DNA of 59,941 bases, the filler included, from Hausera hauseri (taxonomy: Eukaryota), in assembly GCA_046269625.1 (NCBI GenBank). It is 10 parts of 10 records of this genome, joined end to end, with 100 filler letters (N's around TTAATTAATTAA, not from the genome) between each part and the next. Parts side by side here need not be neighbours in the genome. Positions count along the whole stretch, not along the records: positions 1 to 7,243 come from JBJURY010028116.1; 9 more parts are not named here. One strand, given 5' to 3'. This document shows, one piece after another, positions 1-51,492 of this stretch. Made by a program: the position numbers and the translations under genes. The notes beneath the pieces are model-generated. The model saw only the letters and a program-made list of their open reading frames with translations, had not been told where the DNA came from and did no database searches. Numbering within the stretch: the stretch's first letter is position 1; the number at the start of each line of letters is the position of its first letter.

Positions 1-344
1 GCTGCAGGTAGAAACAACAGCTACATTCAACCTGTTACCTCACACTGATACCATATTCTCTTTAACACCAGGCCACCCTGCTTCCTTTCTTGTGGATGCA
101 GCGCCCACGGCAACAAGCATCACTTCTAAGTGGTACTGTGACACAACTCTGGTTGGATATCGCCACTTGTGACCACAACGCTTCAAGTTACACTGGGCAA
201 CAACCTAAATGGGCTTAAATTTTTTATTTTTTGCTGAAGAACAGAGATCACATCTTGGGGGTATAGCGTAGCTGTAATTTATTTAGAAACCCCACAGAGG
301 AAGAGTTATTTTGGAGACAGAGAACTCGTAGGAAGGATGGCTTT

Positions 345-373
345 TCTCTCTCTCTCTCTGTCTCTCGCTCTCT
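345..373. repeat. (CT)n microsatellite
   Basis: tctctctctctctctgtctctcgctctct read directly. Confidence 0.9.
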
Positions 374-715
374 GCTCAAGGGGCTTGCAGGTAAACTTCA
401 ATCAGAAGTGACCTACTCTCTGATCTGAAGCAGCACTGCAGATGAACATTCTATTTATGTTGCACTCCTCAGGAAAATAAGTTCAGTGGAAAAAGTATTT
501 CTCCTTCATTTCTAAAGATAAAATGAAGCTCTTTGAATGAGTGCTTTGAAGTTTCCTGAAAATCTTTTTTGCAATTCAGCTGAGTAAAGAGATTCGTCAG
601 CTGTGTCACCCTACAGTTTGTCTCTTCTCAAATTAGTTTTCCATTTGAAGGCTCAGTAGAATGCAGTCAAAAGTGCTCAGATTTTTTTTGGTCAAACACA
701 CGTCACTTTTGTGGG

Positions 716-2374
716 CACGGAATCAAAGCTTTGATTGCGATAAAGCGGAAGTAGGATCTACATATACCTTGGTTGATTTAGAGAAATGCCCTGATGCTGA
801 ACCGGACAAAGTGACAACAGAATCTGCAACGAAATATTACATTTATCAAGAAAATAAATTTTTCGAGTAAAAGCGCTAGAGTGTAAATTGACGAAACAAA
901 CAAAAATGGCATTGTGGAAAAGCGCATACTCGTTCAACGAATCTACTAATAGCATTACCAGATGAGTCCCGGCGAGTGCTACCAGACGATTCTAAACAGG
1001 CGGTGAGACTGGGTAAGTTAAAGATAAATGACAAGGTGGAAATAACGACAATAGTTAATGGTATTAAATACCTCACAATAACTGAAGGAGGTATGGTAGA
1101 TAAAGACGGAACATGTACAGGACAAACCGTGGATGACGTATCACGGATAGTTGTGCAAAACCTATATACTTGGACAGTCACCTATAAAGAAATCACGTTT
1201 GACGTTGAAACATTGAAATTAATGATTCGGGTGGACTGCGTATATGGTAACGGGTATTGTTTTACCTCAGACTCGGTAATTACCTGGAATGTAGAAGTTA
1301 TAACCTGCAATTTAGCCTTTATTAAAGTTGCAACATTCAATATCACGAAAGGTGTTAGGTTTTCAAAGCCAACGTCACCGCGCTCTGAGGAGGCGGATGT
1401 ACAGCAATTAACAGAGATTGAAACACCAGCAGTCCTAAGGTCAACAGTTGATGACGCAGTACGATTGACAAGAAAACAGATAGTAACCAAATGTAAAACG
1501 GAGATGTATGCTACAAATGTGGAAATGTATACATTAAAACAACCGAAGTTGAAGACACAAAAACAAGTACACCCAACCGAGTACACCCAAACAACGGGGG
1601 GTATTCGGCAGAACTACTGGAGAAGGGCTAGTAACATTCCAGTGTCGGGAAGTTGATGTACTTGTGATAGACACGGCCACATGCACTAATGAAATAGCTG
1701 TCAAATATAATAGACACACGAGATACGTAGCACCAATAAGGAGAGTAATGTTGTTACCAGCAGAAAATCCAACAATATTAAAGGAGTGCATAAGAAACGT
1801 TGAATCATTGTTTAAGATTGAACATGATCACTGGGTTACGATGCCGTCAAGGACGAAAATAATAACCCCACAGAAACTGACGATGCTGGCATTAAACCAA
1901 CAACTGAAATTCGACAATAATGCTAATTTCTTTCAAGGAGGGTTGTACGATGCGACTAGTATGGAAAAGTTAAGAAGGTATTTATTGTTTCCGAAGTAAT
2001 TACACAGACTTATAGTGTCATATACGCAGAGAGTTACTGATACGGGAGATGGAAAAACAAATTGGGAAAATGTCTTATCCCCAGATCACTTCACTAAAGC
2101 CGCAAAGACGATGTTTAAAAAACTATGGGGAGAAATGAAGACGTTTGGAGAAGTACCATCCGGATTTCTAGCTATTTATTTCATAATGCAGATTATGCGA
2201 ACGATAATCGCCCAGATAACTAGTGGGTTTGTAAATTTCCAGCTATTTGGCTGCTCAAAGAAAATATTAACAGCACTTTGCACACCGTTAGCCAAATACG
2301 TACAGCATGCATTAATGGCCCAGTGGATGAGAGAAAGAGAAAGACGATATGACATTATGATGGTAGTGGAATAG
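716..2374 (+). pseudogene. Chuvirus-like glycoprotein (env-like), frameshifted, with an internal deletion
   Basis: N-terminal FDCDKAEVGSTYTLVDLEKC; GGMVDKDGTCTG; CVYGNGYC; GVFGRTTGEGLVTFQC; C-terminal LWGEMKTFGEVPSGFLAIYFIMQIMRTIIAQITSGF hydrophobic segment; collinear with 18440-20283. Confidence 0.8.
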
Positions 2375-2870
2375 GCAGAGTGAGTATCTGTGGATCCAAA
2401 TGGTCAAAACAAGGAAAAATACTAAATAGTAGAAAGCCAAAAAAGGATATATGGAAATGGATAAAGAACTCTAGCAGTAAAGAACGAGACAATAAAATTA
2501 ATAGTTGTACTCAATTGTACCAAATCAAAACCAGGAATCAGGGAAGACCGTTGCCAAGGGTACCCATAACCGATGATAATGATGTGGAAGAGTTAAAAGA
2601 GAATCAGATGGATGCGTTATGTAGCGGTAGCAGTGCTAAGTATATTAAATACCGAGAATTACGGCAACAATTGAAGGGCATGAAGAACGTTACATCAAGT
2701 AGATTATCTATCGCCGAAGTAAGGCTAGTAAATGAAGAAAATTCGAATACTGACAACAAGAACATGACGGTAAAAGTACTACGCTTTAATAATTTTGTGC
2801 ATTACGCTCTACTAAAAGGAAGATGGAGACGAAGAGACCATATACATTGGTTACCGTTCATGAAGATTAG

Positions 2871-5310
2871 GACGTAGTAGCTTTAGTGGATACTGGTTGT
2901 AACGATTCAATAATATTACTATCGAGTATACCCGACAGATACAGATCGGAGTTGGACCCACCCAGGAAAGGGGACCGAGCAACCGTATCGGGATGGGGCG
3001 ACAAATTAATGCCAGTAGGCTATTGGACAACTTAGATAATACTCTACAACAAACGCTTGAAACACACATTTAAAGTATTTGACAAATTGGTTGAGGACGT
3101 AATTGTAGGACTTGACTTACAACGTAAATGTACAGGGCGATACTTGAACTTGACTACGGGACAGCTCGCAATACCAGCGGTAAAGTTCCGAAAAGAAGTA
3201 GTCATTGTACGAGAAGGAATCATCTTGGAACCTACCAGTGAACACATTATACAAGGATATGCGCCAAATATGGTAAATGGAACTATGCTATTCGAACCTG
3301 ATGTGGTATCAAATAGCAGGCAAGGAATAAAAGCGGCGTGCAGTATTAGTACCATCAACGAAGGTTACTTACCAATTCGAGTAATGAACACAGATAGACA
3401 AGCAGATTTACTCAGACCAAATGCAATTATTGGACAATTATGCGTCATATCACACATTATTCAGCCGAAGGAATGTATTGACACGTTTGTAGAGATAGAT
3501 AAAATAAAAACTGATTTAGTTGGGAAAGATAAAATACGTCTATTGTGTGTTCTCAGAAGGCACCTAAAAGCTTTCGCTAAATTTGACACATATTTGGGTA
3601 AAACCGATCGCGTAGTGCATCGTATTCCGTTGCTAAACGAACGACCGGTAAAACAACGACCGCATCGAGTTCCATATACGTTACAAAAAGAATTTAATCG
3701 TCAATTACAGCAAATGTTGGAAAATGATGTTATTAGAAAAAGCAATTCGTCATGGCTATCACCAATCGTAGTAGAAGCAAAAAGGATGGTGGAGCTAGAA
3801 TTTGTATAGATTTTCAACAATTAAACAGTTAGACAATAAAGAAGTCATACCGGCTACCACTACAGGAAGATATATTTGATAAATTAAGAGGCTCTAAATA
3901 TTTTACAACGATGGATATGCAGAGCGGGTACTGGCAAGTCCCACTAGCCGAGGAAGATAAATATAAAACGGCATTTTCCGCCGGTAAAGGTCAATATGAG
4001 TTTAATGTAATGCCTTTTGGACTATGAAATGCTCCATCTACGTTCCAAAAAACCTTAGAAGCTATGTTGATAGATAGTACGCACGCAATGGTTTACATTG
4101 ATGACATTGTGATATTTTCACGGACGTTGGACGAACACTTAGTTGACATCGAAAAAATCCTTGATTTGTTGGAAGTATGGGGATTTAAACTGAAGCTTAA
4201 GAAATGTGCATTTGCAATGTTGAAAGTTGCTTTTCTTGGTCATACTGTGTCAGCTGACGGCATAGAAGTGAATCCAGAAAAAGTATCTGCTATTATGGCT
4301 TGGCCAATCCCAAAGAGTTTAACAGAACTACGCGCGTTTTTGGATACATGTGGTTATTACAGAAAACATGTTCCAAACTTTAGTACAATAGCAGCTCCAT
4401 TGTTTGCGTTAACTGATGAAGGAATTAAATTCTTATGGACAATAGAAACCCAGGAATCATTTGACACTCGAAAGAAACTTTTGTCTTCAGCACCAATACT
4501 CAGATATCCGGATTTATCCCTGTCGTTCATCGTATTTACTGACGCAAGTAACACCGATTTGGGAGCTGTTTTATCACAAACGCCACCAGATTCAAAATTG
4601 GAATATGTAATTGTGTACGCAAGCAGAACCTTGTCAGAAACTGAACAGAAATACGCCGTAATAGAAAAGGAAATGTTAACAATTGTCTTCGCAATGGATA
4701 AGTTCCGATATTAAGTGGGAGTGCATGAAGTGAAAGTTTTTACAGATCACGCGCCATTAGGTTTCTCAACAGTAAAAGACCCATATTCAAGACTGAAATG
4801 ATGGCAACTTAAACTGCAAGCGTATAATTTAACTATATTTTATCGGCCGGGGAAGACCAATAGAAATGCAGACGGACTATCGTGCAGGCCAGCGACGGTT
4901 GAGGGTCTAGAACGTCTAGAGAAAGGATACGAGTCAAAACATATATCGCAAATGATGATTTTCCAGACAACTACTATGCATATCCCGGATGATGAAATTC
5001 ACATATTGATTAACCAACAGGAACAAGATATCGAATTATGCGTAATTCGAGAATTTGTACGAACGCGAGAGATTAATACGTCTAATAAAGAATTGGTCCA
5101 ACATTTGATAAATGAAGGTGCGAAATACCTTATTGCGTCCGAATTATTACGTTATCGGAACCTGCAGTAAAGAAAGGCAAGTCCTCAAAGTTAGCCCGTC
5201 CGTGGCAAGGCCCCAATAAGGTCGAAAAGGTTACAGAAACGAATATTTTTATACGAAACTAATGGGGAGACGAGAAGAAATCATAACCGTCTCTGTAGAC
5301 CGATGAAAAA
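2871..5310 (+). pseudogene. pol: Gypsy pol: aspartic protease, RT, RNase H, integrase C-terminal GPY/F remnant
   Basis: ALVDTGC (DTG 2889-2897, missed by the ORF track); GYWQV and YEFNVMPFG; YIDD at 4094-4105; FTDASNTDLGAVLSQ; KLARPWQGP near 5190-5215. Confidence 0.95.
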
Positions 5311-5329
5311 GGCACCTTTAAATTTATAA

Positions 5330-6493
5330 GTGGAAATACTGCAACAAACGGGCATCGCCCAAACCAGAAACGAGTTAATCTCATCAAACCAAGGTGTGTC
5401 GAAACTCTCTATATTGTATACGTTTTGCCTGTTTATGAGCTTGTGTTCGACATCTCGTGGAATAGATATTGACTGGGGATGGACTCGTCAGAGAAACGAA
5501 TTACGTTTATATACGTTGGTATCAGATATTCTTAATGACATTAAGGTTGGAGTTTTTATGATACAGGGTCATAGGCAATACCAACGGTTCTACTGTGAGT
5601 TTAAACCACTAGGAGGCCACTGCCACTATAAATATCCGGATGAAGGAACACTACAGCAAGTGATCGAAGAATAGGTTAATGGTACTCAAATCAGAAGATA
5701 GAATTCAGAAATAATAAAGATCACGACGTTTTCGTATCAAAAGGAAATCCCAGTTTATATATATTTGTCTGAGAACCAAAAAGGGGTACAAATGCGAGTT
5801 GTCTCGAGAGGGCAAAAATGCCCACTAATGATTAGGAAACAAGGGGAGAGCTCTAAACGGGTAGTTAGATATCAACGCGATTTTAACTATAGCGAATCAG
5901 CTTGGCTAGAACTCAGTTGTTACACAGGCAATCTGCGCCGGTATATTAATTTCCAATGGATTCAAGCACAAGCTAAGCCGTTAAATCTATCAGGCGAATA
6001 CCTTTAGGAGAGAGTATCGTCAACGAAGGATGATAAATTAAAGGAAACGTATAGAGTTCCGTGGATTTTTATACGGCAAGATATGAATATTGTCACAATC
6101 TTGTTGGGCTCGTATCACAGAGCAATAAAAGTACTGTGTCGTAGTGCTACAGGACATCAGGTAGAGAATGGTGGTTTTAATAAAATTCAGGTCACGAAGA
6201 ATTATAGCCTTGAGATTTCAAGCACTAGCTACGACATTGTCCAATTAACCTTTATTATACATGGCTTAAATAATTTTATGCTACTTAATACCACCTTAAA
6301 ACTCATTGTACCTAAACTATTGTTGGTTTCAAAGACTATAGCAAAAAACGTGTACACCCTACTGTTTCTTCTATGCTGCAATGTCTTATCTCGAATATCA
6401 CTTATATATAAAAAATCAAAGAAAGGGACGCAGGAAGAAGTACCACAGCAGACAACAAGACCCAAGACGGCAAAAACACCATTGCATAATTGA
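5330..6493 (+). pseudogene. Putative type I membrane protein downstream of pol (disrupted)
   Basis: Signal-like SILYTFCLFMSLCSTSRG; Cys-containing ectodomain fragments; hydrophobic YTLLFLLCCNVLSRISLIY followed by basic KKSKK. Confidence 0.55.
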
Positions 6494-7113
6494 GTAGGCC
6501 ATCCATTAAAGTCCTTATCTGTTTCAGGGGAATTAGGCACACTGGATCTGCTCACTGCTGCACAGTGCCAGGAAATGATGGGCAGCACTGAGGGACAGAG
6601 CTAAGATTAGACCCCAGTGATTGACAAGTTGATAGAGCCAACTGGAAAACTGCCATTCCTCTCTTAAGATAGTCTCCTTACAGTAATGAAGCAGAGTGCG
6701 CCAGCTCTACATGACGGCATAAGCAGCTAGGGAGATAATGAGGAACTTAAGGACGTTTTATGCAGTCTCTTCTCTTTTGGTCTGTTTTACTTGTCCCACG
6801 TATTGAAATTAACAAGATAAAATGTTGCTTTCCAAAACCATCCACCTGTGACCTCTATCGACTCCTCTGACACACACAAGACACGCAAAAGAAATCGTAA
6901 AATGTGACCAAAACATTTGAGTTGTGAATATTTGAGGAGGAGAAATTTAGAAGGGAGGAATTCAATTGAAGCCTCTAAAATGTCTCTAAAACCTCATCTG
7001 CTGTGAGCACACTGAGCTGATATTATACTTGTCTTATCAGTTCAGACTGAATTAATGAACACAATGTGGAGCAGTGTTAAATTATACTAGCCCACTACCG
7101 TTCAAACTGTCAC

Positions 7114-7162
7114 CATACATACATACATACATACATACGTCACATACATATACATATATATA
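7114..7162. repeat. (CATA)n/(TA)n microsatellite
   Basis: catacatacatacatacatacatac...catacatatacatatatata. Confidence 0.9.
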
Positions 7163-7243
7163 TGGCTGAGTCATACCTGTGTGGCAGACATTCTGCAGTA
7201 GGTGCTCTAGCAAAAACTTATTGGGTTTAGTACCTGGTCCTTT

Positions 7244-7343: not shown

Positions 7344-7715
7344 TTTTCTTGCAGTTACGAAACAAAATACATCGTCCTTTGTTAGTGGCACAAGTAATGG
7401 TGCACATTCTATTCGATTAACTATGGGTAGTAATTCGTATTGTCGCAAGGCATCCCACACCTCATTAGGTGCTAAATCTGTCATTTGTAATTTAGCTTTT
7501 ATTGTTTCTATTAATAATTCTGAAGGTTCACCGTATACTATAGAACCTGGTGGTATATTTACTTTGGGAATAAACCTCTGGTTTTTGATTGGTGGTAATG
7601 TGGCTTCCGAGTGTTGGAGCGTATCCGACATAGATATAAGTTCCTCATCTAACATTTCAAATATTTCGTCATCATTTATAAATTGAAGTTCCTGTCTAGA
7701 TGTGCTCGACTGCAT
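7344..7715 (-). CDS. Retroelement ORF fragment of unknown function, cut by contig end
   Basis: ORF 7296..7715 on the same A-rich strand as the gag region; runs into N. Confidence 0.45.
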
Positions 7716-7868
7716 CCAATTTCGAAGGTTTTCAAATAATGACGGTCATTGGGGTGGAACCTTTGGTTGAGTAAGTGACGCAATTAATTTGTCACCATAA
7801 GGATCTATCCATTCTCGAGTTGGTCTTATTTTAACAGGTTACTATGAATATTCGTCAGAATCCATATC

Positions 7869-8531
7869 CTAATGTATTTGAGCTATTGGTTCGATTCCTG
7901 GAATTGCTCTTGCTTCTTCCATTTTTTTAAGTTCTTTTATTACTGGGAAAGATATTCGTAATGTTTTCTGACTTTCTATTACCCAAGGTGTGTTATATTC
8001 TGTTCGCATTGTCTTCAAATATTCGTCTAAGCATCTTTGTGCCATAACTTCTAAATTGTGACCATTATATAGATCTATACATCTATAATTCCTGTTTGTT
8101 TGTTCCAGATCATAAATGGCGGTTAGATTTGCTGGGTTTATGTTTAATGTATTTAGCAATTCTGGTAATTGTCGTCCGATAATTATTTTTCCTGGTAGAT
8201 ACTTATCCATAAATTCGCTTACCGATTCTTGACGCTGAGGATTAAACCGTCTACTGTATTCTGTGTATTTTGTGTTATCTAGGATGTTTGGGTATACGTG
8301 AACGTTAAGGATTGTTTTCCCTTCTAAATTCTTTGCAGTGATTTGTGTTAGTCCTTTCTGATTTCCTTTGGTTATAAATCTACCGGTAAGGATTATTTCT
8401 TTATCCTGTGTTACCGGTTCTTCTATAGTTAATTTGGATATTTCCTTAAGTAATTGTATTAAATATATCGGACAGTTATCTAGAGGCTGAATCTGATAAT
8501 CTCCATCATAAGGGTAATTGGGAAGTATCAT
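7869..8531 (-). CDS. Degenerate DEDDh (REX4/ISG20-like) exonuclease-fold domain 2
   Basis: LTQITAKNLEGKTILNVHVYP...YLPGKIIIGRQLPELLNTL...IYDL parallels REX4-type ARVSIVN.G.VL..YVKP...L.GRILVGH.L..DL..L; catalytic acids not evident. Confidence 0.5.
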   Translation of the reverse strand: MILPNYPYDGDYQIQPLDNCPIYLIQLLKEISKLTIEEPVTQDKEIILTGRFITKGNQKGLTQITAKNLEGKTILNVHVYPNILDNTKYTEYSRRFNPQRQESVSEFMDKYLPGKIIIGRQLPELLNTLNINPANLTAIYDLEQTNRNYRCIDLYNGHNLEVMAQRCLDEYLKTMRTEYNTPWVIESQKTLRISFPVIKELKKMEEARAIPGIEPIAQIH

Positions 8532-8548
8532 AGTTTCTTTTGAGACTA

Positions 8549-9300
8549 TTACTGCTTTATTGTCAATTTGAACCGTGCTTCTCCTTTATTAGTAATTACA
8601 ACACATGGCGGATCATTTCTATTAATCTGAATATCAGTTCTTTTAAGGTAGATTTTATCTATACCTTCCATACAAATTGATCCTTGTTTGGCAATATCTG
8701 TAAACTCTATTCGATTAGTTTTCTTATTTATAAGCAATTTATCCCAATGTTGGGCAATTTTCATATCCATGGGTTGTAACGTGACTTCTGGTATTAAAGT
8801 GGTATTACACGTTACTTCCTGTTGGGGATATCTATTATCCTTAGTTAGAGGTCTACTTGGGAAAATATAACATGGAGATCCTTGATGATTAAGTTTGATT
8901 TTGTATTCTTGTCGTAAATTATTTAATTGTTGTTGTAATGTACCTTCTCTAATCCAATAATCATCTGGTAAATTAAAGTTCTGATCCACACTAAATGTAC
9001 CGAAGACATGCGTTTCCCTTAATTGAATTTGTTTGAATAACCAGGGCAAATCTGTTCCCACAACAAGTTTTCCACAGAATAGCTGTCTTAAGTTTTCGTA
9101 ACATGTTTCTTTTTCCAAGTGTACGTTTTCTAATTCGGCTATTACATCACCTTCTACATTCTCTATTCTTATTTGAGTGATTTCTGATGCCTGTTCGTCA
9201 TCTATGGTTTTATCCCAAGCTACAAAGGTTAAAAGTAAATTTTTAATTTCTTTGGTTTCCGGCCATAATATGTATGGTAGTGTATTACTTTGGATGTGGG
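8549..9300 (-). CDS. Degenerate DEDDh exonuclease-fold domain 1 plus linker
   Basis: ITQIRIENVEGDVI...LFCGKLVVGTDLPWLFKQI resembles domain 2. Confidence 0.4.
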
Positions 9301-9349
9301 ATTTTTCGTTCAGCTTGATCCAGATACTTTCTGGTTATGAAAGGTTTTT

Positions 9350-11400
9350 CTAAAATAGAAATATTAGATGGTGATTAGATTTATTTTGATGTCGGTCCGC
9401 CGTTGGTTTAGTGAATAATAATCCTGTAAATGCTGATTTGGTCTGTTCATTAAAAGTTACTGATCGACGGGGTGAAACACTTCTTTCCTCATTATTACCT
9501 CTTCTATTATCTGGTGAGTTTTCTTTTTCTCTTATGGAATCATTATAAGGTGGTGTTGAATACGGTTTTCTTTCATCATAATATTTAGAATTTCCTGATG
9601 TCGCATTTCTATTGTATCTAGGTGGAGAAAATCTTCTATTCATTGGTGAATCATTTCGTCTGTAATTATAATCTGATGATCGAGTATATCTATCATTATT
9701 ATTGTTATTCAGTCTATGGGAAGGAGTTTGGTTTCGGTCTCTTGGAGTATATGGACTAGGATTCCTATTATATCTACGATTCTCGTCGAGGTGGTATATA
9801 ATCATGTCTTCTATCATAGTTTACTGATCTTGGATCATTATATCTGTTTCTGTTATCAGGATTATATCTATCTCTACTATCAACGCGCTGATTATTTCTT
9901 TCTCTGCTGTCATTTCTATTAAATCCACCATATCGTTCTCGACTGTCATCCCTTCTAAATCTCTTACAACTTTCACTTCGTCTTTCATTAAAATAATTAG
10001 ATCCTTTTGAACGATTGTTTGGATATCGCGTTTGGCTATCGTCTTGTGGATATCGTGTTTGACTATCTTGTCTGTAATATCAGTTCGTTTGACTATTTCT
10101 GTTTTCGTAACGATTAGAATTTCGGTCGTTATTATATCTTTCTCTGCTAGGAAATCTATTTCTGTTATCATTTGTGTCTCTTGAATAATCTCATGGTCTG
10201 TCATATCTTGTATCATTTCGTTGTCGGTCATCATAATTTTCTCTATTTCGTTGATATTGTATATCTCTTTGGTGATTGATTATAATTTCTTTCTGGAGTA
10301 TTACTTCGCTGCGGTGTATTATTACCTTGTTGATTAGGGCTTTGACTTCTTGGAGAGTCTCTCCAAGGCGAACTACTACGATTGGGTACGTCTGACCATA
10401 CTAATAATGGTGCTGTAGCTACTGCTGCTACTTGCGTTTGATTGGTCCATAAAGGCGTTTCATCCACTCGAGTCGCCATTTTTCTGGCATAATCTATTAA
10501 TTCGTTAATATTGTTAGCTGTATGAAATTTAACTCCTTCTCGTAAGGGTGGTAAGAGCCAGAGTACAAAATGCTTTATAATCATAGCGCTAAAAGCATCC
10601 ACATTAGGGCCAATATATCTATTCATTGCCGTTTTGAATCTATTAATATAAGTTAAAATTTCCTCATTTGATTTCTGTTTGCAATTTTAAAATTTTAAGT
10701 ATCTATTTTCTTGTATATTGACCTGTTGATTTCGTAAAATCCTTTTTCTGTATCGGTTCGAAGTTTCATTATCCAATCTAGGTAGACGAGTTATTGCCGT
10801 ACTTAAATCACTGTTCACATGTACTGGTAACATGGATATTTTCTTTGCCTCATCCCAATGCATAGCTGTAGCCAAAAAATCGTATTCATCTAAAAAGTCT
10901 TCCTATTTTGATACTTGTCCTTCGTATGGTTGGAGACGAGGGAGCATCTGATATTTTTCTTCCCTTCTTCTCTCCTCTCCATTTGGTAAACCATAACCGA
11001 CGTTGTTACGGTCATAATCTTCACGGTGGGCCGCTGGCCCTTGATTATTCCTTTGCGGATACATGTTGTTGCTATCAGTGTCAGAGATTTCACAAGGTAT
11101 GGAATCTACGTCTATTGAAAACTCTTGTGATTGGATTTCTTCTCGTCGATCTATTTCTTCTGGCCTTATTTGTCCAATTCGTTCATTTAACTGGTCTATT
11201 CCTCGTGTTAATATTTCTATTCGATTTCTGGTACAATTATTTTCCTCCTGCATTTGTTCCCGTTCATCTACTATAATTGCTACTCGATCTTGTATTTCGC
11301 TTATCCTTTATCTTACTTGCCTTTTGTTATTATCAATTTGTTCCCTATTTCTTTTTATCATGGTTATACCGTCATCAGTTTCATATCGTAGGTTATATAT
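9350..11400 (-). pseudogene. gag: Retrotransposon Gag-like protein: coiled coil, capsid, long RS/RD/SP-rich C-terminal region
   Basis: LPRLQPYEGQVSK*EDFLDEYDFLATAMHWDEAKKISMLP (capsid N-terminal pattern); KQKSNEEILTYINRF (major-homology-region-like); then DSRER, SPRR, SPP repeats. Confidence 0.75.
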
Positions 11401-11676
11401 TTGTCTAGAATTATACAAAAGACGATGTCGAATAAAATTTGACATTGGAAATTTATATGTAAGCTAACAGGATAGCCCAGTAGCTACGTCAATGATATCT
11501 CGACACCCCGCTAAACGTGAGAATATACAACAATACATTAAATACCGAACAGAAACACAGCCAGATTGGTCGCCAAACGGGATAGAATTACTTCAGAATA
11601 AAATTTTGTATCCCCAGAGAAGGAAAAGAAACCTAAACAAAATATCCTCGACAATCTCTATTTATGCGATCTAGAA

Positions 11677-11868
11677 TGCGTGATCTGCTATGTAAACGTA
11701 CCATAAGTTATTCTTCTACCGTGTGGTCATCTAGAAACATGTTAGCTATGTTCCAATAAAACAAAAAATTGCCCAGTTTGTAGAAATCTTACAGAAAGAC
11801 GAGTGACTCATTTCCAATTTTCAGAAAGGAACAGTGAAATAATCTCACCCGAAATGGATATTAACTAA
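11677..11868 (+). pseudogene. IAP/Mdm2-type C3HC4 RING finger with two in-frame stops
   Basis: Manual translation: ECVICYVNVP*VILLPCGHLETC*LCSNKTKNCPVCR. Confidence 0.85.
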
Positions 11869-11877
11869 TAATTAGTA

Positions 11878-15700: not shown

Positions 15701-16190
15701 CCTATGAATAACCGTCCAGACAAATATACCACGCCACTCAACTTTGTTATGATAAAGCCGAGTGTGACACTTCGTATAAATTGCCATCCACTATCCTTTT
15801 CGGTATAGTTGGCGATCTTCTCATCCAACTTTTCGCATATATCGGCAATAAAATCTTCCGAATACGGTACGGCTCGATATGACAGGTACCATTGTTTCCT
15901 GTCACCTACAACGTTTTCAAATTATGCAAGTGCATAATATTGCACTTTGCAGTTGTTGCGTTTGAATTTATCCACCTGTAATTCCAACCGGCTACGCACA
16001 CCGGACGGAACATGTCTCAGCTGTACTGTTGTTGTCCTCGAAATGTTTGCTTTCATGTCCACGTACGATTTGATTAGATCGTACTTGACAGTAATGGAAG
16101 GTTCCTGCTGTTGCACCTGCTGCTATTCGGTACTGTTTTGGATGTATTCGTCAAGACGTGTTCAGGCCTGACGTTTCCTGCTTGTTCAGA
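12737..16190 (-). pseudogene. Polinton/adintovirus protein-primed DNA polymerase B (pPolB)
   Basis: VVYADIEA; DHDHFTGRYLGSACNLCN; VIFHN; KGIFPYD; DVYLLTDVF; NNLYGWA; NSLYG; SDTDG; C-terminal DDDK...SWAYGHWRLK* ending at 12737. Confidence 0.95.
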
Positions 16191-16608
16191 GGTTACTGGT
16201 TTTTTTCGTCGACATCACTATTTCCTTTCTGGACCGCTGAAATTGGTTTATGTGGTCCTTGTGCTGGTTATAAAATTGTTCATAGCTGATTTTATCAACT
16301 ATCGAACAACCGGGACAAACGTAGGCCCGTTTACCGTGCACCATTGTGGCGTCATAGTATTGCCCCATTGCACTATGGCAACCATCAACTTCATGTACTC
16401 TACTACTACAATATCGGGGGTATGTGTGGCAATGCACAAGCATCATCTTTTTTGCACGCTTAAACGGCCAAGATGATGCTTGTGCATCGCATAAAAGTTG
16501 GGGTATAAACAAGGGGATGAAATAATAACGCACGTTTGGCCAAATGTGAGTCCGTGCCAACGGTGTAACATTTAGCCATCTGCTGATGGTACTGTTCCTG
16601 CTCCGCAT
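16186..16608 (-). CDS. Cys/His-rich (C2H2-like) region immediately upstream of pPolB
   Basis: YVCPGCSIVDKISYEQFYNQHKDH; homologous to 46839-47462 and 54060-54472. Confidence 0.65.
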   Translation of the reverse strand: MRSRNSTISRWLNVTPLARTHIWPNVRYYFIPLFIPQLLCDAQASSWPFKRAKKMMLVHCHTYPRYCSSRVHEVDGCHSAMGQYYDATMVHGKRAYVCPGCSIVDKISYEQFYNQHKDHINQFQRSRKEIVMSTKKTSNL

Positions 16609-16705
16609 ATATGGGCGAGACGCAATACATGGGATAATTACAAAATAAAATAAATGTTTTATATTAAGTTATAAATACTATAAATTGAGAAGTGACTTAT
16701 AAACA

Positions 16706-16805: not shown

Positions 16806-17087
16806 TGGGCTGCACACTTGAACTGTTCACCAATCGATGCATCTCGATGTGCTCTATCGAGTAGCACTTTGTCCCTATCGATTTGATTAATGGCGCACTG
16901 TGCAGCGATCGATTTGCCAAATGTGCAAAAGTGCCCTTAGCAACGGTGCCTGGCGCCACCGTTGCCAGGCACTTTTTGTATGGATAGTGCTCCGGGTGCA
17001 CTATCGATTGGCATATGTGCAAAACTGATTTATCGATTACCCCTCCCCCCACCCCGGGTGGGACAGAAAGCACATTTTCACACTACT
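16806..17087. mobile_element. Probable Polinton terminal inverted repeat end
   Basis: GC-richer palindromic block ending CACACTACT; ACTACT at 17082-17087 is the reverse complement of the canonical Polinton 5'-AGTAGT terminus; abrupt switch to A-rich retroelement coding sequence afterwards. Confidence 0.65.
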
Positions 17088-17195
17088 GACGAGAAAATAA
17101 GACAATTGTTGCCACAAATATGACAATTTGAAGAAACTTGCATTAAAACCAAACAGAGAGCGGTAAGATTAGACGAACTAACTAAAGGGCTCAAA

Positions 17196-18167
17196 GTGTA
17201 TAAAAATAACTATGCTCTTACAGAAGCAGAAAAGACTGACAAGTCACAATTTGTTCAAAGATGGCCAAGAGACGTAGCCTCCGAGTTAACCAATTATCAA
17301 GAACCAGGATTTATATCAGGTGAAGAATTGTGTCAGCTGCTAACAGTATTACGCCAAACTTCCGGAAACGGACGTTGTTTCCGAAGCACACAAATGGTTA
17401 TAATGCAACAAAAACTACGGGAACTAAGAGAATCAAATAAGGATGCGAACTTAGTCCGGCCGTTAGAAACTCCGGAGATTGATTTCGGACTACCCGAAAA
17501 CGAAAACGAATGGGACGCGTATCTGAATGCAATAGTTGCCGAAAACCCGAAAACTCCCGTGCACTTGTACGAAACGGAGACATGTCCACCAGATCAGAGA
17601 TTCAATGTGGAGATGCTTCTGGACTCGGCACAAACTGAAAAGGATCTAATAAAGTTAATAAATGTAAACCTTACCGAAAATCAATTAAGACGGTTAGTTC
17701 CCACCCTAACTAAATTATCTAGCGAAGGTACGATTTATCGTGCTGCACAAAAACTTTTAATCAAAGAATATGCTAAAATCTTAAGGACAAGGCCCGAAGA
17801 GACGATTAAAGTAATAATAACGTCTGACTGAATGGACTAGAAGGAGCACGAGTTTACAACACGTTCCCTTGTGAAGGATGTAGCACTGTGGTTAAGGAGT
17901 AATGGTCATAAAAATGAATTGAACTGTAGGCTTCATTTTAGAGGAAGAATATTAGACAAACTGGAACTACTAATAGAAATTGGAATTATTCCAGACGAAG
18001 CAAACCGCATAGCGGTTACCATTCCCACCGACGAAGCAAAAGAAGAGGCCACCAGAAGGGCGAAGACTGAACAGTGGGTAGGACGAATTGTAGGAGTTCG
18101 ACATGCAGCAATGTACTTCAAATACTTGCAAAAGATGAAGACAAGGAACAATATGATAAGAATTTAG
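17196..18167 (+). pseudogene. N-terminal ORF with a ubiquitin-like domain (about 17800-18030)
   Basis: ORFs 17196 and 17871 are in one frame across two stops: TIKVIITSD*MD*KEHEFTTRSLVKDVALWL...CRLHFRGRILDKLELLIEIGI, compared with ubiquitin [21 protein letters not shown]. Confidence 0.55.
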
Positions 18168-20283
18168 TGCCACCCAGTAATATCGCACAGACAGTAACCA
18201 AACAGAAGCCTCCTGTCGGCAGGCCACGGAAGACACGAGAAGAAATCGACTATAACGGAGACATATTCGAATTTAATAAGACCACAAGCTTGGCAAGGAA
18301 GGCTGCCAGGAAACTGCCCCAAGAAGTAAACTGGTCCAAATTATTTGAAAAAGAAGAAGAACGTCAAAATAGACCCTTTCTTGACAATAATAGATTTGTA
18401 GACCTGCTACAAAACGTAACCGGAAATAATAGAGGAAATGGGCCAAACTGGCTAATTAACTTCTTAACCGTGATGATGTTAATAAGACAAATGGGTGCAG
18501 TTACAGTGTACGACTGCGGCAAATATAAACTTGGCCAAAAATACTCATTAATGGACTTAGAAATGTGTGAGGATGCGAGACCACATAAACTAGAAACAAA
18601 AGAGAAAAATTACGTGCTATACCAACAACGCGAACTAGTTACATTAGACGGAATAGAATGTATGTTGCGACGATCCCGTAGTATTTTCCATTGTGGACTA
18701 GTACATGAGCATATATCGATAATCAAGCCAACAACCCCACCAATTCCGATGAACTTAGAACGCCAGCACTGTAAGCAAGCTAGACAGACTGGAAGATTAA
18801 AATGGGATGACATGGAATTGGAAATGCAACAAGGAAAGATAATTAGAGTATATAACCCGGCAGCTGGAAGACTACATATGCATATCGAACATTGTCACGG
18901 TACGGAGTATGATACTGGAAAGGGATTAGAGTCGAATATCGTAGTGGTAGATTTTTACAAAACCGAGATGCGCCTACAAAAGGTAATGTTCCGTAGCGTT
19001 ACTAAACTTTACACGGAAAACCAGAAGTGCCACATTCAGGACGGTACTTGCTCTTTTAGAAGCTCCGTGGTAATTTGGGAACTCCCAGCCAAGGCCGATT
19101 GCAATTTTATCAGAATTAAAGAACTTAAGTTTAATGAGACAACAGGGAAACGATACATACGTAGCACGGAAACTAACTCTAAAACACGAGAAGATGTAGC
19201 CAAACAGTCCACACCTGCTATACTGATTTCTGATATTTATGGATTAAAATTTGTGAAGATGTACTAGAAAGATGCAATGTCATAATGTACGCCACCAATT
19301 ATGAAGAATTCATTGTAGCTGAGACGGAGATAAACGCCAGAACGTTTAAGCTCGAGACTCAAGATATTCGAATTGAGGATTATTTGAAAGAGACGACCAT
19401 TTCTACTATAAAGGACAAGTTGGAATAGCCGAGTTATATAACAAAATGATAACAAATGACTGCAAATTTGACTTGGAAGTTATGAGGACTAAACTGGTTT
19501 TAATATATGATAACCCCGAATTAGCGTCACTAATAATTCCGATGAAAGAAGGCGTTTTCGGTCGGGTAACCGGAGAAGTCCTGCTGACCTATAAATGTGA
19601 AAAAAACGATGAACCTATTAATATGGAAGAGAAGAGGTGTATACAGGAACTTCCAGTAATATACCAAGACGTACAAAGGTTAGTAACACCAATTACTAGA
19701 GTATTGTTGGCAAACTCTACTCAACCGACAATTTTGAGACTGCAAGACCAGCCTAGGCGAATCAATGTTCAGACGTAGCAAAACCTATTGGGTAAGTTTG
19801 CCAAACGGCGGCATAATTACGCTGCAGACCAAGTTAACAGGAACAAACTTAATAATAGGAAAAACCGATGATAAATTTCAAGATACCGCCGCAAAGGGCA
19901 TTTAACGACCAAAAGAGGTAGAGGCGTTCAGACAATTCCTCGCTTTTCCTCGTCAGCGCACACATGAATTAAACAGAACGATGCATACAATACCAGAGGA
20001 CTCGCGTTATCAAGCGAAGTGGAAATCATTGCTTGGTGTCAACTACTACCGAAGAGTAACTACGGAAATATTGTATAAAATTTGGGGAAGATTCCTGATA
20101 TTCGAACAAGCCGCGTCAGGATTCCTAGCAATTTATTTCTTGATTCAACTGATCAAAGCGATAATTCAAGCGATTATAAATGGATACGAGATATTCACTT
20201 TGACAGGATTCTCGTGTAAGATTCTAACAGCTATTATAACACCTCTCGGTAAATTCTTAAAGGCTTATAAAGAGAGTAAATAG
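18074..20283 (+). pseudogene. Chuvirus-like glycoprotein with internal signal peptide and C-terminal membrane region
   Basis: WLINFLTVMMLIRQMGA/VTVYDC...YSLMDLEMC...IECMLRRSRSIFHCGLVHEHISII...CKQARQTG...AG...CHG...GVFGRVTGEVLLTYKC...CIQELPV...IWGRFLIFEQAASGFLAIYFLIQLIKAIIQAIINGY. Confidence 0.85.
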
Positions 20284-20959
20284 AAAGCGGATGTGGAACG
20301 ACATGTTGACTACCATAATCGAAAACGTAAGACATTCGATTACAAGCAAAAATTCATGGATACTAATACACGAAGATATAACTCTGACATGACGAGCCTA
20401 AGGGAGGAGACGTTCTCTCCAAGTCGAACAGGCACAAAAACTACTCTGCTATGAAACTACCATTACCAATACTACCGCCAACGGCACCTATATATGAAGA
20501 CTGTGAGAAACAATCTGAGCTCGTGCCAGACAGGAGTCAATCGGAAGCCGTTTAATCTAGAGGATCCTTACGAAGGAACAAAACACTATGGGATATTGCG
20601 TAAGATCCACGAAACAAAAAGAACGTCTGCCCCACATCGCCGCGCGGCAATCGACGATCACGGTATAATTTATTCACCTAGAATACCTAAATCAAACGAA
20701 AGGCAGTCAACATTTACCGGAAGCCGCGAAACACACCATCTCAGAAACCAAGAGATCCAGCCGCCAGTTAGAAAACAGGAGATAGAAAACGTAAATGGTA
20801 TGAATAACGAACTATACCCAATTGGAGTGTTAAGACAATTAATCGATTGGCCAGTTGAAACCACTGATGTCACCATCAACGGCTATACGTTATCCACAAT
20901 ACGACACCCCCACATAGAACCAAGCTATTACGGTGCCGTAATCGAAGGAAGCCCTTCGC

Positions 20960-23900
20960 AAAAATTCAAATAGAAGATTGGGAAGTTTGCGGACTGATAG
21001 ATACAGGATCCTAAATCTTGCTGATAAAGTATAATTCGATACCACAATTCCTAAGGAAACAATTATATCCATCTCCTACAACAGACCCAGGAAGTGTCGG
21101 AGCCTTCGGCCAATCGTCTAAAAGCAAATTTCGTTGGAAATTGGAAATTCGCATAATGGGACAATCTTTCCATCATGAATTTTCAGTAATGGAACAATTA
21201 ACGGATGATGTAGTATTGGGGTGCGATCTATTGAGGCAACTACCCAACATAGCGATAGATTTCAATGCAGGGAAATTAATAGAACTTGGTCCAATAAAAG
21301 GATTAAAACCACTAAATACAAAAAATTCGGAGAAATGTGGATTCCCGTGGATGAAAACATACCGCCCAGAACCGAATTGCTAATATATGCTCAGATACGT
21401 CATGATGACGATCAGAAAGTATATTTTAAGCCAAAAGAATCGATTAATCCTAACATTGTGCTCAGCAACGTTTTGACAAGAGTATCAACGGGCCGCGTGC
21501 CAATTAGAATAGCAAATAACGCACCGACCCCGATCAAGCTATATGCCAATACCACTTTGGGACACACGTATAGAGTGTCATCAATTACTATCGAAGAGAA
21601 ACCGTATAAAGGCTCCGAATTTCCACCCCACGTTGAGATCAAATTTTCACCGGAGTCATATAGTCGATTTTACGAATTACTTTGTCGATATAGCTCGGTT
21701 ATCGTAAAAGATGAAGAGGATATTGGCCGAGCTAAAGCTTTAAGACTCACGATCCCACTTAAGAAAAAGCCTGGGTCCAACGATAAAATAGATTTAGAGG
21801 ATCAAAAGATGCCGAAATTGTATCCCCTCCACACTCGTTAAGACCGGAGATAACCAAGGAGGTTGAACGGATGTTAAAGGCAGACATAATCAGACCAAGC
21901 TATAGACCTTATTATTCACCTATCCTTATGGTTAAGAAGAAATGTACCACTAAGCACCGATTTTGTATCGATTATCGAGCGTTAAATACGCTCACGATGA
22001 AGGACTCTTTTAAATTACCATCGGTAAAGAAAGCTCTGGATAGGCTTTCTGGAGCTAAATGGTTCACCACACTTGATTTAAAATCCGGATATTGGCAAGT
22101 AGAAATAGAGGAAGAAGACCGTTACAAAACCGCGTTTAAGACACACGACGGTATATACGAATTTAACGTCATGCCATTTGGAATAACTACCGGACCAGCC
22201 ATCTTTACCGGCATGATGAACAAGATGCTGATGGGATTAGAACACGCGTTCGCCTACCTAGATAACGTCATGATTGAGATAAAAACGGAAGAGGATCATT
22301 TAAAGGATATTGAAGGTATGCTCATGAGATTGAAGCAAGCTGGATTGAAACTGATTCCTAAGAAAGGCAAATGGGCTCAAAATGATGTATCTTATCTTGG
22401 ACACAGTCGGGGAAGGAGGATCAAAGCCGGATAGATCATTGCTAAATAAAATATAGGACTGCATGGAACCACAGAATCAAAAGGAACTAAGATACTGGTT
22501 GGGATTATGTCAGTATTATGCTACGTATGTTTCAGATAATTTGGAGATAAACACACCCTTGAATCGCTTGCTTAAAAAAGGGATAAAATGGAAATGGACC
22601 GACGTTGAACAGAAACATTTGATGAAATGACGAAAATTCTAACTAGTGAATCTGTATTAAGATATCCTTACTTCAACCTAACGTTCATAATCAAAACAGA
22701 CGCCAGTAAGGAAGGCATCGAATACGAACTAGCTCAGAAACGAGGAGACGAGGAACTAGAACATCCGATCGCATATGGAGGGGGCTCTCTAAAGAAAGCC
22801 GAGAAAAACTACTCTGTAACGAAGTTGGAAACGCTAGCGGTGAATGAAACACTGAGACATTTTAATGTATACGTCTATGGACAGAAGATTGTAATCGTCC
22901 CTGGTCACAAGGCGGTCACAACCTTGAAAGGTAGAGCAAATAATCCAACCTGTAGACTCAACAGATGGATCTAGGAGATCTCACGTTACAACATTGAATT
23001 CCAATGCAAGCCTGGAAATAAACATGTCGATGCCGATGCATTATCGAGACTTAAAACTAAGACAAGCGCAGTTGCGGTAATGAGGAAAGCCCACCTGAAA
23101 GACTTAGTAGAAAGACAACGGACTCTCACACTGGATAAGGCATTGACGATTTCTATCGAACAGAGAAACGACAAAGTTATACAACAAATTATCGAGTTTG
23201 TTGACACCAACAAACCACCAAATGGTCATAAGTTACGGAAACACCTACGACGACATGGTCACAAATACTGCATCGTAAGAAATTTGAACCACGGAAATGT
23301 TTTGTACCACAGACGAAAGGGACGAAAACTAGTCGTCATATTAAAGGGACTACGTGCGGAAGTACTAATGGCTGAACACGACTCATACCTAGCCGGACAA
23401 ATGTCGTGGAAGAAAACATTGGAAAAAATATTAAATAAATATTACTGGCCGAGCATTTACATTGACGAGATAAATTGGGTGAATGCTTGTGAAGTATACG
23501 CAATCAAACAGAGAAAAGTGAAAAACTACATCACGGAACTTAAACCTATCAATGTGCCAGATAGACTAATGCAGGCAATGTCCATGGATATTGTAGGACC
23601 ATTGCCTACAACTCACAAAAACAATAAATACATTTTGACCTGTGTAGACCGATTGACTCATTTCGTCGAGCTTATAGCGTTAATAGACCAAAAGGCCGAG
23701 ACTTTGGCAGAAGTAGTAGTCTGGAAGATTATTTGCAGATACGGACCACCTGAACAAATTTTGACAGACCAAGGAAGAAACTTTACAAGCAAATTGTTCG
23801 AAAAAATTAACAAAATTTTTGAAATTGGACGATTAACTACCACAGCTTATCATCCCCAGTGTAATGGAATGGTTGAACAGATGAACGCGACAGTTACATG

Positions 23901-24420
23901 AATCTTATCAACAGTAGTCGCAAAAGACCAGAACGATTGGGACGAGTTTTGAGAAGACACAGTTTGCCATTAATACTACACCACATCCTGCGACGGGATT
24001 CACTCCATTTTTCATGATGTACGGTAGAGAAGCTGTATTGCCCACAGATTTAGGACTGATCCCATACATAACAAGAACGGAAGATTTAGAGCAAAATTTT
24101 GTCGAGATTACACAAGTGCTGGGAAATAGCCAAAGAATTATCTAGAGAATACCAGGAACAATTCAAGAAGCAATACGACAAGAAGGCGAAACGACACAAC
24201 CTAGAACCAGGAAACTGGGTTTACGTACACTATCCAGTGGCAAAGAAAGGCACGTTTGTTAAACTTACCAGGACAGGCAAAGGACCTTATGAAGTTATCA
24301 AAACTACATCAACCACAGTTTATATAAACAAAAACGGCAAGGAGGAGGTCATATCAATTCAAAGACTAGTCAAAACGGAAATAAGACCAAACAAGCGCTA
24401 TAGTTTGCGTTCGAGCAAAG
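20960..24420 (+). pseudogene. pol: Gypsy pol: protease, RT, RNase H, integrase with GPY/F
   Basis: GLIDTGS (DTG 21000-21008); RFCIDYRALN; LDLKSGYWQV; YLDN (mutated YxDD); KTDASKEG; MDIVGP, LTDQGRNF, NGMVEQ (DDE); GKGPYEV. Confidence 0.97.
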
Positions 24421-24469
24421 CAAAATTGGACTATACAAACAAAGAAAAGAAAACGTTGTCGATAGTGAC

Positions 24470-25798
24470 TAGACCAATATCGTATGTACAAGTAGTCATC
24501 GCCTTATCGTTAATCGCTTCGTATATACCAAAGACAAGGTCGATAACCCGAACCGAAAACTACAGTATGCGGCAAGACGAAGAGATATCCAAAACTTACA
24601 GTCACTTAGAGTATATGATATGGATTGGAGCAAACCATGTGCATGGTTCGAAGCAAGTGAACCTATTCTGGGCCATGTAAAATTTCAAATAATCTTTGTA
24701 ACTAGATACACATGTAAAACATGCGATTTTCCATACGGAGCTCATAGACAATGTTGTAATTTAGATTTCAGACAAACCTACCGATACAGATTTCAAATGT
24801 TCTATTATAATCAGCCCAGAGCCCAAGCATATATAATTACTGAACTTTTAATAAGGATGCCTCAACGAAATGACACGAACCAAGCCAAGGCGGATGAGAT
24901 AATCCAAAGTACTGATGTATTTAAAAGGCTCTTAGATTATAACATTGTTGGGATTTCCAATGACCTAAAGAACCAATGTATCCGAATCAAAACCAAAATA
25001 GAACTGCAAGGAGACAGATACATTTCTGCCCGATTTATACAACTGAATGCCTCGACTCCTATTCCGGAGTATTGTTATCTCGCACGACGACGGCCTACGG
25101 TATGTTGTAAATTGCAGCTAGGACACAACTACCAGTTACAGTTTGATCTGTACAACACTTACCCTAAAAAACCGAGTACTTACTTACGAGGATACCGTCC
25201 AAAAACCGGAATATAGAAACTTCCGTTTTTAACCACTACAAGGAAACCGTCCACTATTCCAAGTACAATTCGCACTACTGCAATCGTCACTTCGGAGGAA
25301 ATGCCAGAAAAAGAACTAGGGAGCATACCGGTTAAGATTTTGGCAAAAAGTGATAAAATTCTATTTTATGCTGACGAAACGTTAAATCAAGACGTCAAAA
25401 TTGAATGTCGCATCCTGCACATTAACCAAATCATAATCCTAAGAAAGAATAGTCAGGAAACTGAATGCAGTTCATTGCGACCGCAGCATAACTATATAAT
25501 CCGAATCACCTGGAAGAGTAAAAACCCTAAAACTTTTACAGTCCGAACTCTTGACAACAAAATTGATGTAATGCAGTATAAAGATCTTAGTACTCAGAAT
25601 GTGTCTACCACAAAAGATTCTATTGAGCCAGACAATTTACCGATGATAGCTATATTAAGTTTGTCAATTTTCGTTCTTGTCGCATTAACAGCGATGATTT
25701 TTCTAGTTTCCAAAAATTGTAATAAAAACAGTAAAAATCAAAAGGGAGATAAACGGGTAAAAGGATGCCAAGACGAACTTTATGATAGCATAACTTAA
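24470..25798 (+). pseudogene. Second type I membrane protein with three Cys-containing FN3-like repeats
   Basis: Signal-like YVQVVIALSLIASYIP in frame with the IN tail; repeats CCNLDFRQTYRYRFQM, CCKLQLGHNYQLQFDL, ECSSLRPQHNYIIRITW; TM MIAILSLSIFVLVALTAMIFLV then basic tail. Confidence 0.65.
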
Positions 25799-25903
25799 CA
25801 ATTACACATCAGGTTATCCTATCATCAGACAGCGAAAATGTTTTGTTTCAAAACGATGATCTGTCTTAGGATTGACCTTTATTTTTATTTTAGCAGAGTA
25901 AGT

Positions 25904-27150: not shown

Positions 27151-27494
27151 GTTCATAATAATTCAACGGAAACGCCCAACCGTCGACCAGCCGAGCCCGA
27201 GAAAAAATTGAAAAAAATTCAAGTAACCCCGAAACTTTGAGAGAACAAAAACTAAAACTCCCTTCTTAGAGTATATTATCAAGAAAAGAAGGAAAACTAG
27301 TAAAAACCCAGTAAAAGAAAACAAGTCACCTGAGCATACAGAAAAACCCACAAGACGAGAAGCCGATAATTCTGACGAGATCAAGATGAGAACTGCCGAT
27401 ACAAAACTCCGTAAGATGGAAGTGTGAGGAGGAATTTAAACGGATATTAAGGTTTAAATTCAATTCAAAGTTAGTTCAAATTTAAGCCAATAAA

Positions 27495-47174: not shown

Positions 47175-47186
47175 TTCATAAACTAT

Positions 47187-50110: not shown

Positions 50111-50120
50111 NNNNNNNNNN

Positions 50121-50768: not shown

Positions 50769-50799
50769 ATGTGCGTGTAACACGATTATAAACAAATCA

Positions 50800-51480: not shown

Positions 51481-51492
51481 TTATGATAAAAA

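Follow-up and report, generated by a model that had tools for sequence, protein, structure and literature searches.

Positions from about 730 to about 6395 of the window, by which we mean the whole 59,941-nucleotide stretch from the Hausera hauseri assembly GCA_046269625.1 that was analysed here, hold a retroelement of a known kind: very probably a Burro-type Ty3/Gypsy element with a glycoprotein B (gB)-type envelope (env) ahead of pol, dead and truncated at its ends. The window consists of ten records joined by a fixed spacer; record 1 (1-7243) carries this element, which was compared with record 4 (16806-27751), and a Pfam scan covered 76 of 155 open reading frames (ORFs) of the window. Taking the whole together, we consider it likely that the copy is a dead Burro-type piece that decayed in an invertebrate and was then joined to vertebrate DNA. 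The first-pass annotation had extended the element over 716..6493, but its last part (6395-6493) is flank DNA common to other organisms, which had supplied a "cytoplasmic tail" behind the last hydrophobic stretch.

All parts of the element lie on the plus strand. It opens with a gB/chuvirus-type (class III) fusion glycoprotein made of an ectodomain and a C-terminal membrane segment (730..2350), recognized by PF24664, by tblastn matches of 27-34% to relatives, and by 12 of the 14 cysteine columns common to the glycoprotein set. Its signal segment was removed by the left joint, and breaks occur near 858-901, 1525-1588, 1997, and 2353. The PF24664 family (Monjiviricetes fusion glycoprotein) matches in two pieces, at 1553-1996 (E 3.7e-18) and 2000-2371 (E 4.8e-15), and in three pieces in record 4. 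Between glycoprotein and protease, a spacer of about 500 bp had been described; it is present, but rather than non-coding DNA it is a coding linker (2353..2861), stop-free over 147 codons and bridged on each side by contigs of sequencing run X1. From membrane motif to protease motif we counted 242 codons, compared with 136-379 in 12 relatives. The aspartic protease (2862..3170) bears LVDTG at 2883 and two stops, and was matched by tblastx to record 4 at 30% and by tblastn to the related proteins P0003 and P0063; its RVP match is weak (E 0.0056) and below the cut-off. A further domain (3180..3480) occupies the position of the Burro dUTPase-like domain and matches two related loci, L001 and L002, by tblastx at 24-29%; it has no Pfam match, and the dUTPase-like name rests on PMC6431247. 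Reverse transcriptase (RT; YIDD at 4094), connection, and RNase H (TDAS at 4538) follow at 3549..4882, interrupted by stops and frame breaks and recognized by RVT_1, RT_RNaseH, and RT_RNaseH_2, with RVT_1 and RT_RNaseH matching 4028-4711. A linker and the GPY/F remnant (GPNKV at 5209) come next (4883..5259). Here the integrase zinc finger and catalytic core are missing: about 306 residues were lost at ~5155, where residues 2948 and 3254 of P0063 meet, and where contigs of runs X1 and X2 cease matching the window and continue into other sequence. The element ends, on the evidence of its translation, with a signal-peptide-like start, a beta-rich region with three stops, and a hydrophobic end cut by the right joint (5400..6394).

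The order glycoprotein, spacer, protease, RT, RNase H, GPY/F remnant, and signal-peptide protein, as first proposed for record 1, was upheld, and it is collinear with record 4. There, the comparison family (17598..25798, plus strand), identified by Pfam and profile tests, comprises a helical and ubiquitin-like module, glycoprotein, protease, RT, RNase H, a whole integrase, and a second membrane protein. The motifs named earlier occur in both records in identical order (positions in record 1 and record 4, respectively): GVFGR.TGE at 1598 and 19551, SGFLAIYF at 2159 and 20116, KILTA at 2261 and 20218, L[VI]DTG at 2883 and 20994, Y[IL]D[DN] at 4094 and 22255, TDAS at 4538 and 22696, and the GPY/F-like motif at 5209 and 24282. 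It also held true that the DNA of the two families cannot be aligned: blastn between the two records gave no match, and tblastx gave a collinear one (E 6e-115) from the glycoprotein through the GPY/F remnant, with identities of 30% between glycoproteins and 37% over RT-RNase H. Pfam recognized RT and RNase H in both records and integrase in record 4 only. The Pol order of Ty3/Gypsy elements (protease, RT, RNase H, integrase with GPY/F) was found, the integrase core being deleted in record 1 and whole in record 4 and the relatives. Env stands directly ahead of the protease in both records, and the gag side is missing in both. The RT matches are Gypsy-type, some of them so named, and the trees were built without a named BEL, Copia, or retroviral reference panel.

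In record 1, the glycoprotein ectodomain carries conserved cysteines, is followed by a membrane segment on its C-terminal side, and appears to be of class III (gB-like), the fold being taken from the relative P0002. The predicted structure of the P0002 glycoprotein (mean predicted local distance difference test, pLDDT, 80) matches herpes gB (E 9e-14), and it also matches Tacheng tick virus 4 and chu-like glycoproteins (E 3e-42); an Env profile found no match among PDB sequences. The glycoprotein tree kept 15 of 42 rows, those with long alignments, one near-duplicate being dropped. In it, the two window proteins are sisters, with support of 92/97 under the LG model and 96 under a mixture model, inside the Burro-type set and separate from three stand-alone glycoproteins, whose viral origin we infer from Pfam score and length; both window branches are long. 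The RT provides a less settled picture. Ranked by score, the top 7 of the 121 RT matches for record 1, and the top 6 for record 4, belong to the clade that contains the Env-Pol polyproteins P0003, P0014, and P0063; trees of 122, 45, and 30 rows leave both copies unplaced. A single clade was not rejected by approximately unbiased (AU) tests (p 0.23 and 0.275), in which either the window copies or all env-before-pol rows were held together, the groups having been defined once the earlier trees had been seen. Env and RT groupings agree among five intact relatives.

Could records 1 and 4 have gained env before pol independently, by rearrangement or env swapping, instead of belonging to one lineage? 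Their RTs are just 37% identical and each is nearer to other elements, no RT tree joins them, and the published GAG-ENV-POL elements, in the available part of PMC13524379, do not form one clade. We nevertheless hold independent gain to be improbable, as the glycoproteins are sisters under both models, the pair shares the most pair-only residues (18 columns, the next best pairs having 16 and 12), and both RTs have the same nearest clade, for which unity was not rejected. The claim of one lineage for the two families is thus supported by Env and left undecided by RT.

The layout recurs well beyond the window. Word-indexed protein searches with the glycoprotein gave no matches; an HMMER scan with the record 4 glycoprotein succeeded and returned 62 proteins, 24 of which were scanned by Pfam. 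PF24664 was present in all 24, followed on the same chain by a protease or full Pol in 8, and by RT, RNase H, and integrase in 4 of those 8; a glycoprotein after Pol occurred in none of the 24. P0063, a cluster member, carries all parts in one ORF of 4,844 residues, and CCHC knuckles lie upstream of the glycoprotein in 6 of 13 long relatives. Locus scans yielded two usable loci, L001 and L002, both from metagenome contigs, and none usable in viral or genome contig sets. The two loci are single ORFs of at least 3,426 and at least 3,703 codons, with the same domain order and a second signal-plus-membrane protein after integrase. Identity of the window families to the single-ORF relatives P0003, P0014, P0063, L001, and L002 is 27-34% in the glycoprotein and 40-48% in RT. 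The helical/ubiquitin-like module before env in record 4 is recognized by a profile at 41 bits, reached by 0 of 200 shuffles; weak matches to Bcl-2 in P0002 and to ubiquitin in L002 were also seen, and this region is absent from record 1. Furthermore, X1 contigs, 82-92% like the window, connect the glycoprotein with the linker (1915-2421) and the linker with the protease (2458-3582); other copies thus keep the order. In record 1 the frame breaks near 2353 and again near 2795, and at both places X1 contigs are unlike the window in length; such differences flanking a stop-free linker would fit one continuous ORF in the record 1 family.

An inherited, old layout, as the first-pass annotation had suggested, is therefore supported by the 8 of 24 relatives with Pol behind the glycoprotein, the two intact one-ORF loci, the X1 contig links, and the sister glycoproteins. 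That it was no one-off insertion was likewise borne out, and that it was no misassembly stands for the inside of the element, its joints to the flanks being possible misjoins. A one-off chuvirus insertion or misassembly ahead of an ordinary Gypsy pol we regard as hardly credible: chuviruses have a glycoprotein of this family too, and their genes are reported to be often endogenised (PMC7642597), yet 8 proteins, 2 loci, and record 4 all show the same order, the parts are joined by X1 contigs, and the window glycoproteins are 28-31% like most Burro-type Envs as opposed to 18-20% like the stand-alone glycoproteins. The two families, 30% alike in Env and on a branch of their own, support a deep age of the Env-in-polyprotein design.

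Several further features were seen among these relatives. Tandem protease-like copies follow Env in P0003, P0006, P0007, P0063, L001, and L002, with up to 8 D[TS]G motifs (P0063), and each of the two window families has a single copy. Upstream of the Env signal segment, the window (18219-18233) and P0001, P0003, P0007, P0008, and P0063 share an AT-hook-like GRP[RK] motif. Both intact loci have a separate downstream ORF with an RNase_T (DEDDh) exonuclease match (L001:10617-12104, E 1.4e-5, above the cut-off; L002:12085-13470, E 1.1e-3, below it). P0014, a Burro-type polyprotein of 2,627 residues, carries the NCBI label hypothetical protein and is assigned to a genome bin of Flavobacteriaceae, into which animal DNA likely found its way.

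After pol, a protein with signal peptide and membrane anchor had been proposed. It is supported by position; no stretch passes a simple hydrophobicity cut-off, and no sequence match to the relatives' protein was found. A profile of the relatives' C-terminal repeat gave record 4 a score of 20.4 bits, equalled by 0 of 200 shuffles, and did not match record 1 (0.5 bits, 48 of 200 shuffles as high). A single-sequence fold of the last protein of record 1 reached a pLDDT of 30, a structure-atlas search with that of record 4 gave no usable match, and pairwise phmmer found no link for either. A second signal-plus-membrane cassette follows integrase in L001, L002, P0003, P0014, P0063, P0068, P0070, P0071, and P0074, and a second membrane protein in this place is a steady part of the Env-in-polyprotein design.

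The copy in record 1 is dead. It contains 11 stops in 1,858 codons, several frame breaks, and an ectodomain deletion near 1525-1588, in addition to the loss of the integrase core. A gag profile did not match record 1, which we read as truncation, the copy being cut at the Env start, because CCHC knuckles lie upstream of Env in the relatives. No long terminal repeat (LTR) or long direct repeat was found in records 1, 2, and 4 or in L001 and L002, all of which are partial sequences; neither a primer-binding site nor a target-site duplication was found for the record 1 copy, and searches returned no Rfam match and no tRNA. Lacking gag, LTR, and integrase core and burdened with 11 stops, the copy can neither transpose nor make Env. 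Because the mature ectodomain starts at the left joint, exaptation of env was considered; it was rejected, as the gene is broken in several places.

Where this decay took place is indicated by CpG content. At each joint the observed-to-expected CpG ratio (o/e) changes abruptly: either flank has 0.31, against 1.07 for the element (Fisher p 8e-8); intact relatives show 1.04-1.11. CpG depletion of the degree seen in the flanks is typical of methylated vertebrate DNA, and the flanks are of vertebrate type, likely from fish. The 11 stops correspond to a decay of ~4-5% (range 2-9%), for which a methylated genome with a five- to ten-fold CpG rate would be expected to lose 16-30% of its CpG; the rate implied by the flanks is near four-fold. 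Transitions found only in the window fell on CpG at 2 of 11 sites vs 56% expected at a five-fold rate (p 0.012, or p 0.078 at a three-fold rate), and changes with respect to X1 are symmetric (333 against 331). Since the element keeps its CpG, the copy probably decayed outside a vertebrate, in an invertebrate genome without CpG methylation, before it met vertebrate DNA; the test behind this is moderate, not strong.

The flanks themselves are non-coding vertebrate-type DNA on the left (1..729) and vertebrate-type DNA with a further sequence change at ~6918 on the right (6395..7243). The left flank occurs on single contigs of runs X3 (95.7%) and X9 (97.8%), which have other sequence after 733-736; 6393-6918 of the right flank occurs on X3 (97.1%) and X9 (92.7%) contigs, with other sequence before and after. 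Beyond the joints, X3 has at least 331 and at least 2,313 letters of other DNA; these lie on separate contigs and thus provide no clean empty site. We read the flanks as host DNA that continues differently in two related organisms. At the left joint, flank and element matches overlap by a few bases (730-733/736). The runs behind the contig evidence come from a set of 18 sequencing-run rows, none listed as an RNA run and 17 with a small share; X5-X8 and X11-X18 were unused. Contig cover was taken as presence only, so that gaps were uncounted (cover is lacking in X3 and X9 for most of the element, and nearly so in X1 for the flanks and in X4 for record 2). Depth was not used as copy number (X1 medians 133 over Env, 114 over the linker, 135 over the protease, and 46 over the last protein), and the X1/X2 depth ratio of 36 on record 1 and 47 on record 2, which hints at a minor share of an A-like organism in X2, was not counted.

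How might such a piece have come to lie between these flanks? In the relatives, and presumably in an intact record 1 family, one ORF encodes Gag, accessory modules, an internal signal segment, the gB-type ectodomain, its membrane segment, linker, and protease, followed by RT, RNase H, integrase, a second signal segment, a beta-rich ectodomain, and a membrane anchor. Two internal signal segments and two membrane anchors there surround a cytosolic Pol, and the ribosome may thread the polyprotein in and out of the endoplasmic reticulum. Host signal peptidase would release the start of the fusion protein and that of the last protein, and the element's protease would free the enzymes from the membrane-tethered linker; fusogen, enzymes, and second surface protein would be made one to one and could be packed into an enveloped particle. 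The copy in record 1 would first have decayed in an invertebrate, probably flatworm, genome, and the decayed piece would then have been patched into a vertebrate chromosome break, probably by end-joining, with loss of host DNA and without integrase. Host-parasite transposon transfer involving flatworms is in print (PMC13155389, as far as its accessible text goes). We favour, tentatively and without calling it probable, a real germline insertion of dead element DNA by end-joining at a break. Equally tentative is its consequence, that gB-enveloped Burro-type DNA, described so far only from invertebrates, is now part of a fish genome, the 5.7-kb remnant having decayed in a parasite before it was patched, without integrase, into the germline of the host.

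The most serious competitor is a chimeric record around a real element: in a mixed sample, the library or the assembly would have fused invertebrate DNA, of a parasite or of prey, with that of the host. No bridging contig is listed, the X3 and X9 flanks lie on separate contigs, there is a further joint at ~6918, run X2 holds pieces of both flanks and element, and the element lacks any CpG loss, all of which would fit. Two separate misjoins, 5.7 kb apart and with vertebrate DNA on both sides, would be needed, however; record 1 has no N gap, and overlaps of a few bases are too short for joining by a word-based assembler. We therefore judge a chimera rather unlikely. Still less probable is a Burro-type envelope-bearing family that entered the vertebrate germline and transposed there, this copy later losing both ends and integrase. 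The copy does lie among vertebrate-type DNA, its estimated decay (2-9%) is comparable in size to the differences between the flanks and X3 and X9 (2-7%), and a gB-type Env could carry the element between hosts. Yet its CpG content is untouched, it has neither LTR nor target-site duplication, two separate end deletions would be required, and, in the accessible part of PMC13524379, no intact vertebrate element is homologous to the invertebrate ones. The reverse direction, namely a parasite genome that captured host DNA pieces beside the decayed element, would agree with an unmethylated appearance of the element and a right flank in two pieces; it is less probable again, given that host DNA reaches both record ends (730 and 850 bases) with no invertebrate-type DNA beyond and that two captures would be needed.

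Against a dead Burro-type piece that decayed in an invertebrate and was then patched into vertebrate DNA, the following must be weighed. No RT tree puts the record 1 copy in the Burro clade, to which it is nearest by score and path, its last protein is unlike the relatives' repeat, and the in-frame env-pol fusion, seen in relatives, is deduced for the record 1 family. Processing of the polyprotein and particle formation are likewise deductions, as are "fish" and "flatworm". No contig listed in four runs bridges either joint, so that each joint is seen in the window only. In X3 and X9 the left and right flanks occur on different contigs and may not be neighbours, and the third sequence change at ~6918 would fit a patchwork contig as well. 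In addition, the CpG test weakens if the family began at an o/e of 1.2 (p 0.06-0.56) or if the CpG rate was three-fold (p 0.078), and its 11 transition sites come from the best-supported rows of more than 1,000.

Were the joints real, dead DNA of an invertebrate retroelement would have passed passively into the germline of a vertebrate. Such a transfer could be dated by comparison with close relatives whose site is empty, and it would concern a group that has no intact vertebrate member in the accessible part of a recent survey (PMC13524379). The copy would stand as a direct fossil of DNA flow from parasite to vertebrate, and as a marker of an element branch not yet sampled in fish parasites. 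Were they not, mixed fish samples would be seen to give convincing false transfers, for which the CpG contrast is a cheap flag.

Other records of the window hold further mobile DNA. A gag profile matches record 2 (7344-11877, minus strand) at 45 bits, a score reached by 0 of 100 shuffles, and this record holds a third Burro-type family's gag end. It is ~50% identical to P0019 over its first 1,009 residues, P0019 having a gB-type Env further on; ~600 residues after an Arg/Asn-rich stretch have no Pfam match, and 8,220 contigs of run X1 lie on this record. In record 4, the first ~290 bases (16806-17100) are richer in G+C (49.5%) and hold short repeats within them; they may represent a small non-autonomous element fused with the retroelement. 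The end of that record (25799-27751) has extra ORFs, of 234 residues and others, without match to Pfam or to the downstream ORFs of L001 and L002, and its last 85 codons, a start at 27495 that is gag-like by eye, failed a profile test (2.3 bits, 9 of 100 shuffles). Records 3 and 8 (13091-16636 and 43928-47519), 77% alike over 3.6 kb, carry DNA polymerase B pieces and an endonuclease VII match and are decayed Polinton-like elements. Record 9 (50097-53174) shows a TBP-like match (E 2.7e-6) upstream of an integrase with a weak chromodomain, a Polinton-like setting, and has ~800 bases in common with record 10 at 79%.

To date, several systems have been described with which the element can be compared. 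Like Anakin, it is an LTR retroelement that took up this glycoprotein family (PMC7642597, PMC13524379, PMC12440569, each in the part accessible), but Anakin has a BEL/Pao backbone, whereas in the window Pol resembles proteins of Gypsy type and retains a GPY/F remnant. Troyka, according to the available text of PMC12440569, is an LTR retroelement of aquatic animals with one polyprotein that crossed phyla into fish; it was rejected, being described there without the envelope and GPY/F motif that are both present in the record 1 element. In the literature searched, which left aside Repbase, subscription papers, and bioRxiv supplements, elements of this kind were reported from neither vertebrates nor fish parasites. 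Closer are the HSV/gB-type (HSV, herpes simplex virus) errantiviruses of Chary and Hayashi, GAG-ENV-POL elements of nematodes, bryozoans, and flatworms that do not form one clade and for which the accessible part of the survey gives no intact vertebrate homologue (PMC13524379). They also are Ty3/gypsy elements with a gB-type Env with conserved cysteines ahead of Pol; their nine flatworm rows, from Macrostomum, Prostheceraeus, and Schmidtea in the same text, were compared by description and stand outside the present trees. Instead of the intact ORFs and recent multi-copy state expected of that group, record 1 has 11 stops, frame breaks, and two deletions.

The nearest counterpart is the planarian Burro/GYPSM1, whose env lies in frame between gag and pol and matches mononegavirus fusion proteins, with ubiquitin-like and BCL2 modules before env and a dUTPase-like domain after the protease (Arkhipova and Yushenova, PMC6431247, in the part available). 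Ankyrin and BIR modules before env, a length above 30 kb, and a dugesiid planarian host also belong to the definition of Burro/GYPSM1; the records of the window are short. The window families resemble it in env between gag and pol, in the succession of protease, pre-RT domain, RT, RNase H, and integrase, and, in record 4, in the ubiquitin-like module before env; P0063, at 4,844 residues, is near the 4,873-residue Burro1 ORF, a likeness of length alone. They differ in being just 27-34% (Env) and 40-48% (RT) like such proteins, in forming their own Env branch, and in a single protease instead of tandem copies, record 1 moreover being a dead fragment of 5.7 kb surrounded by vertebrate-type DNA. 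A second membrane protein behind integrase goes unmentioned in the accessible part of that account. Thus, the layout itself is already published (PMC6431247; PMC13524379), and two more families, on an Env branch of their own, widen the known group.

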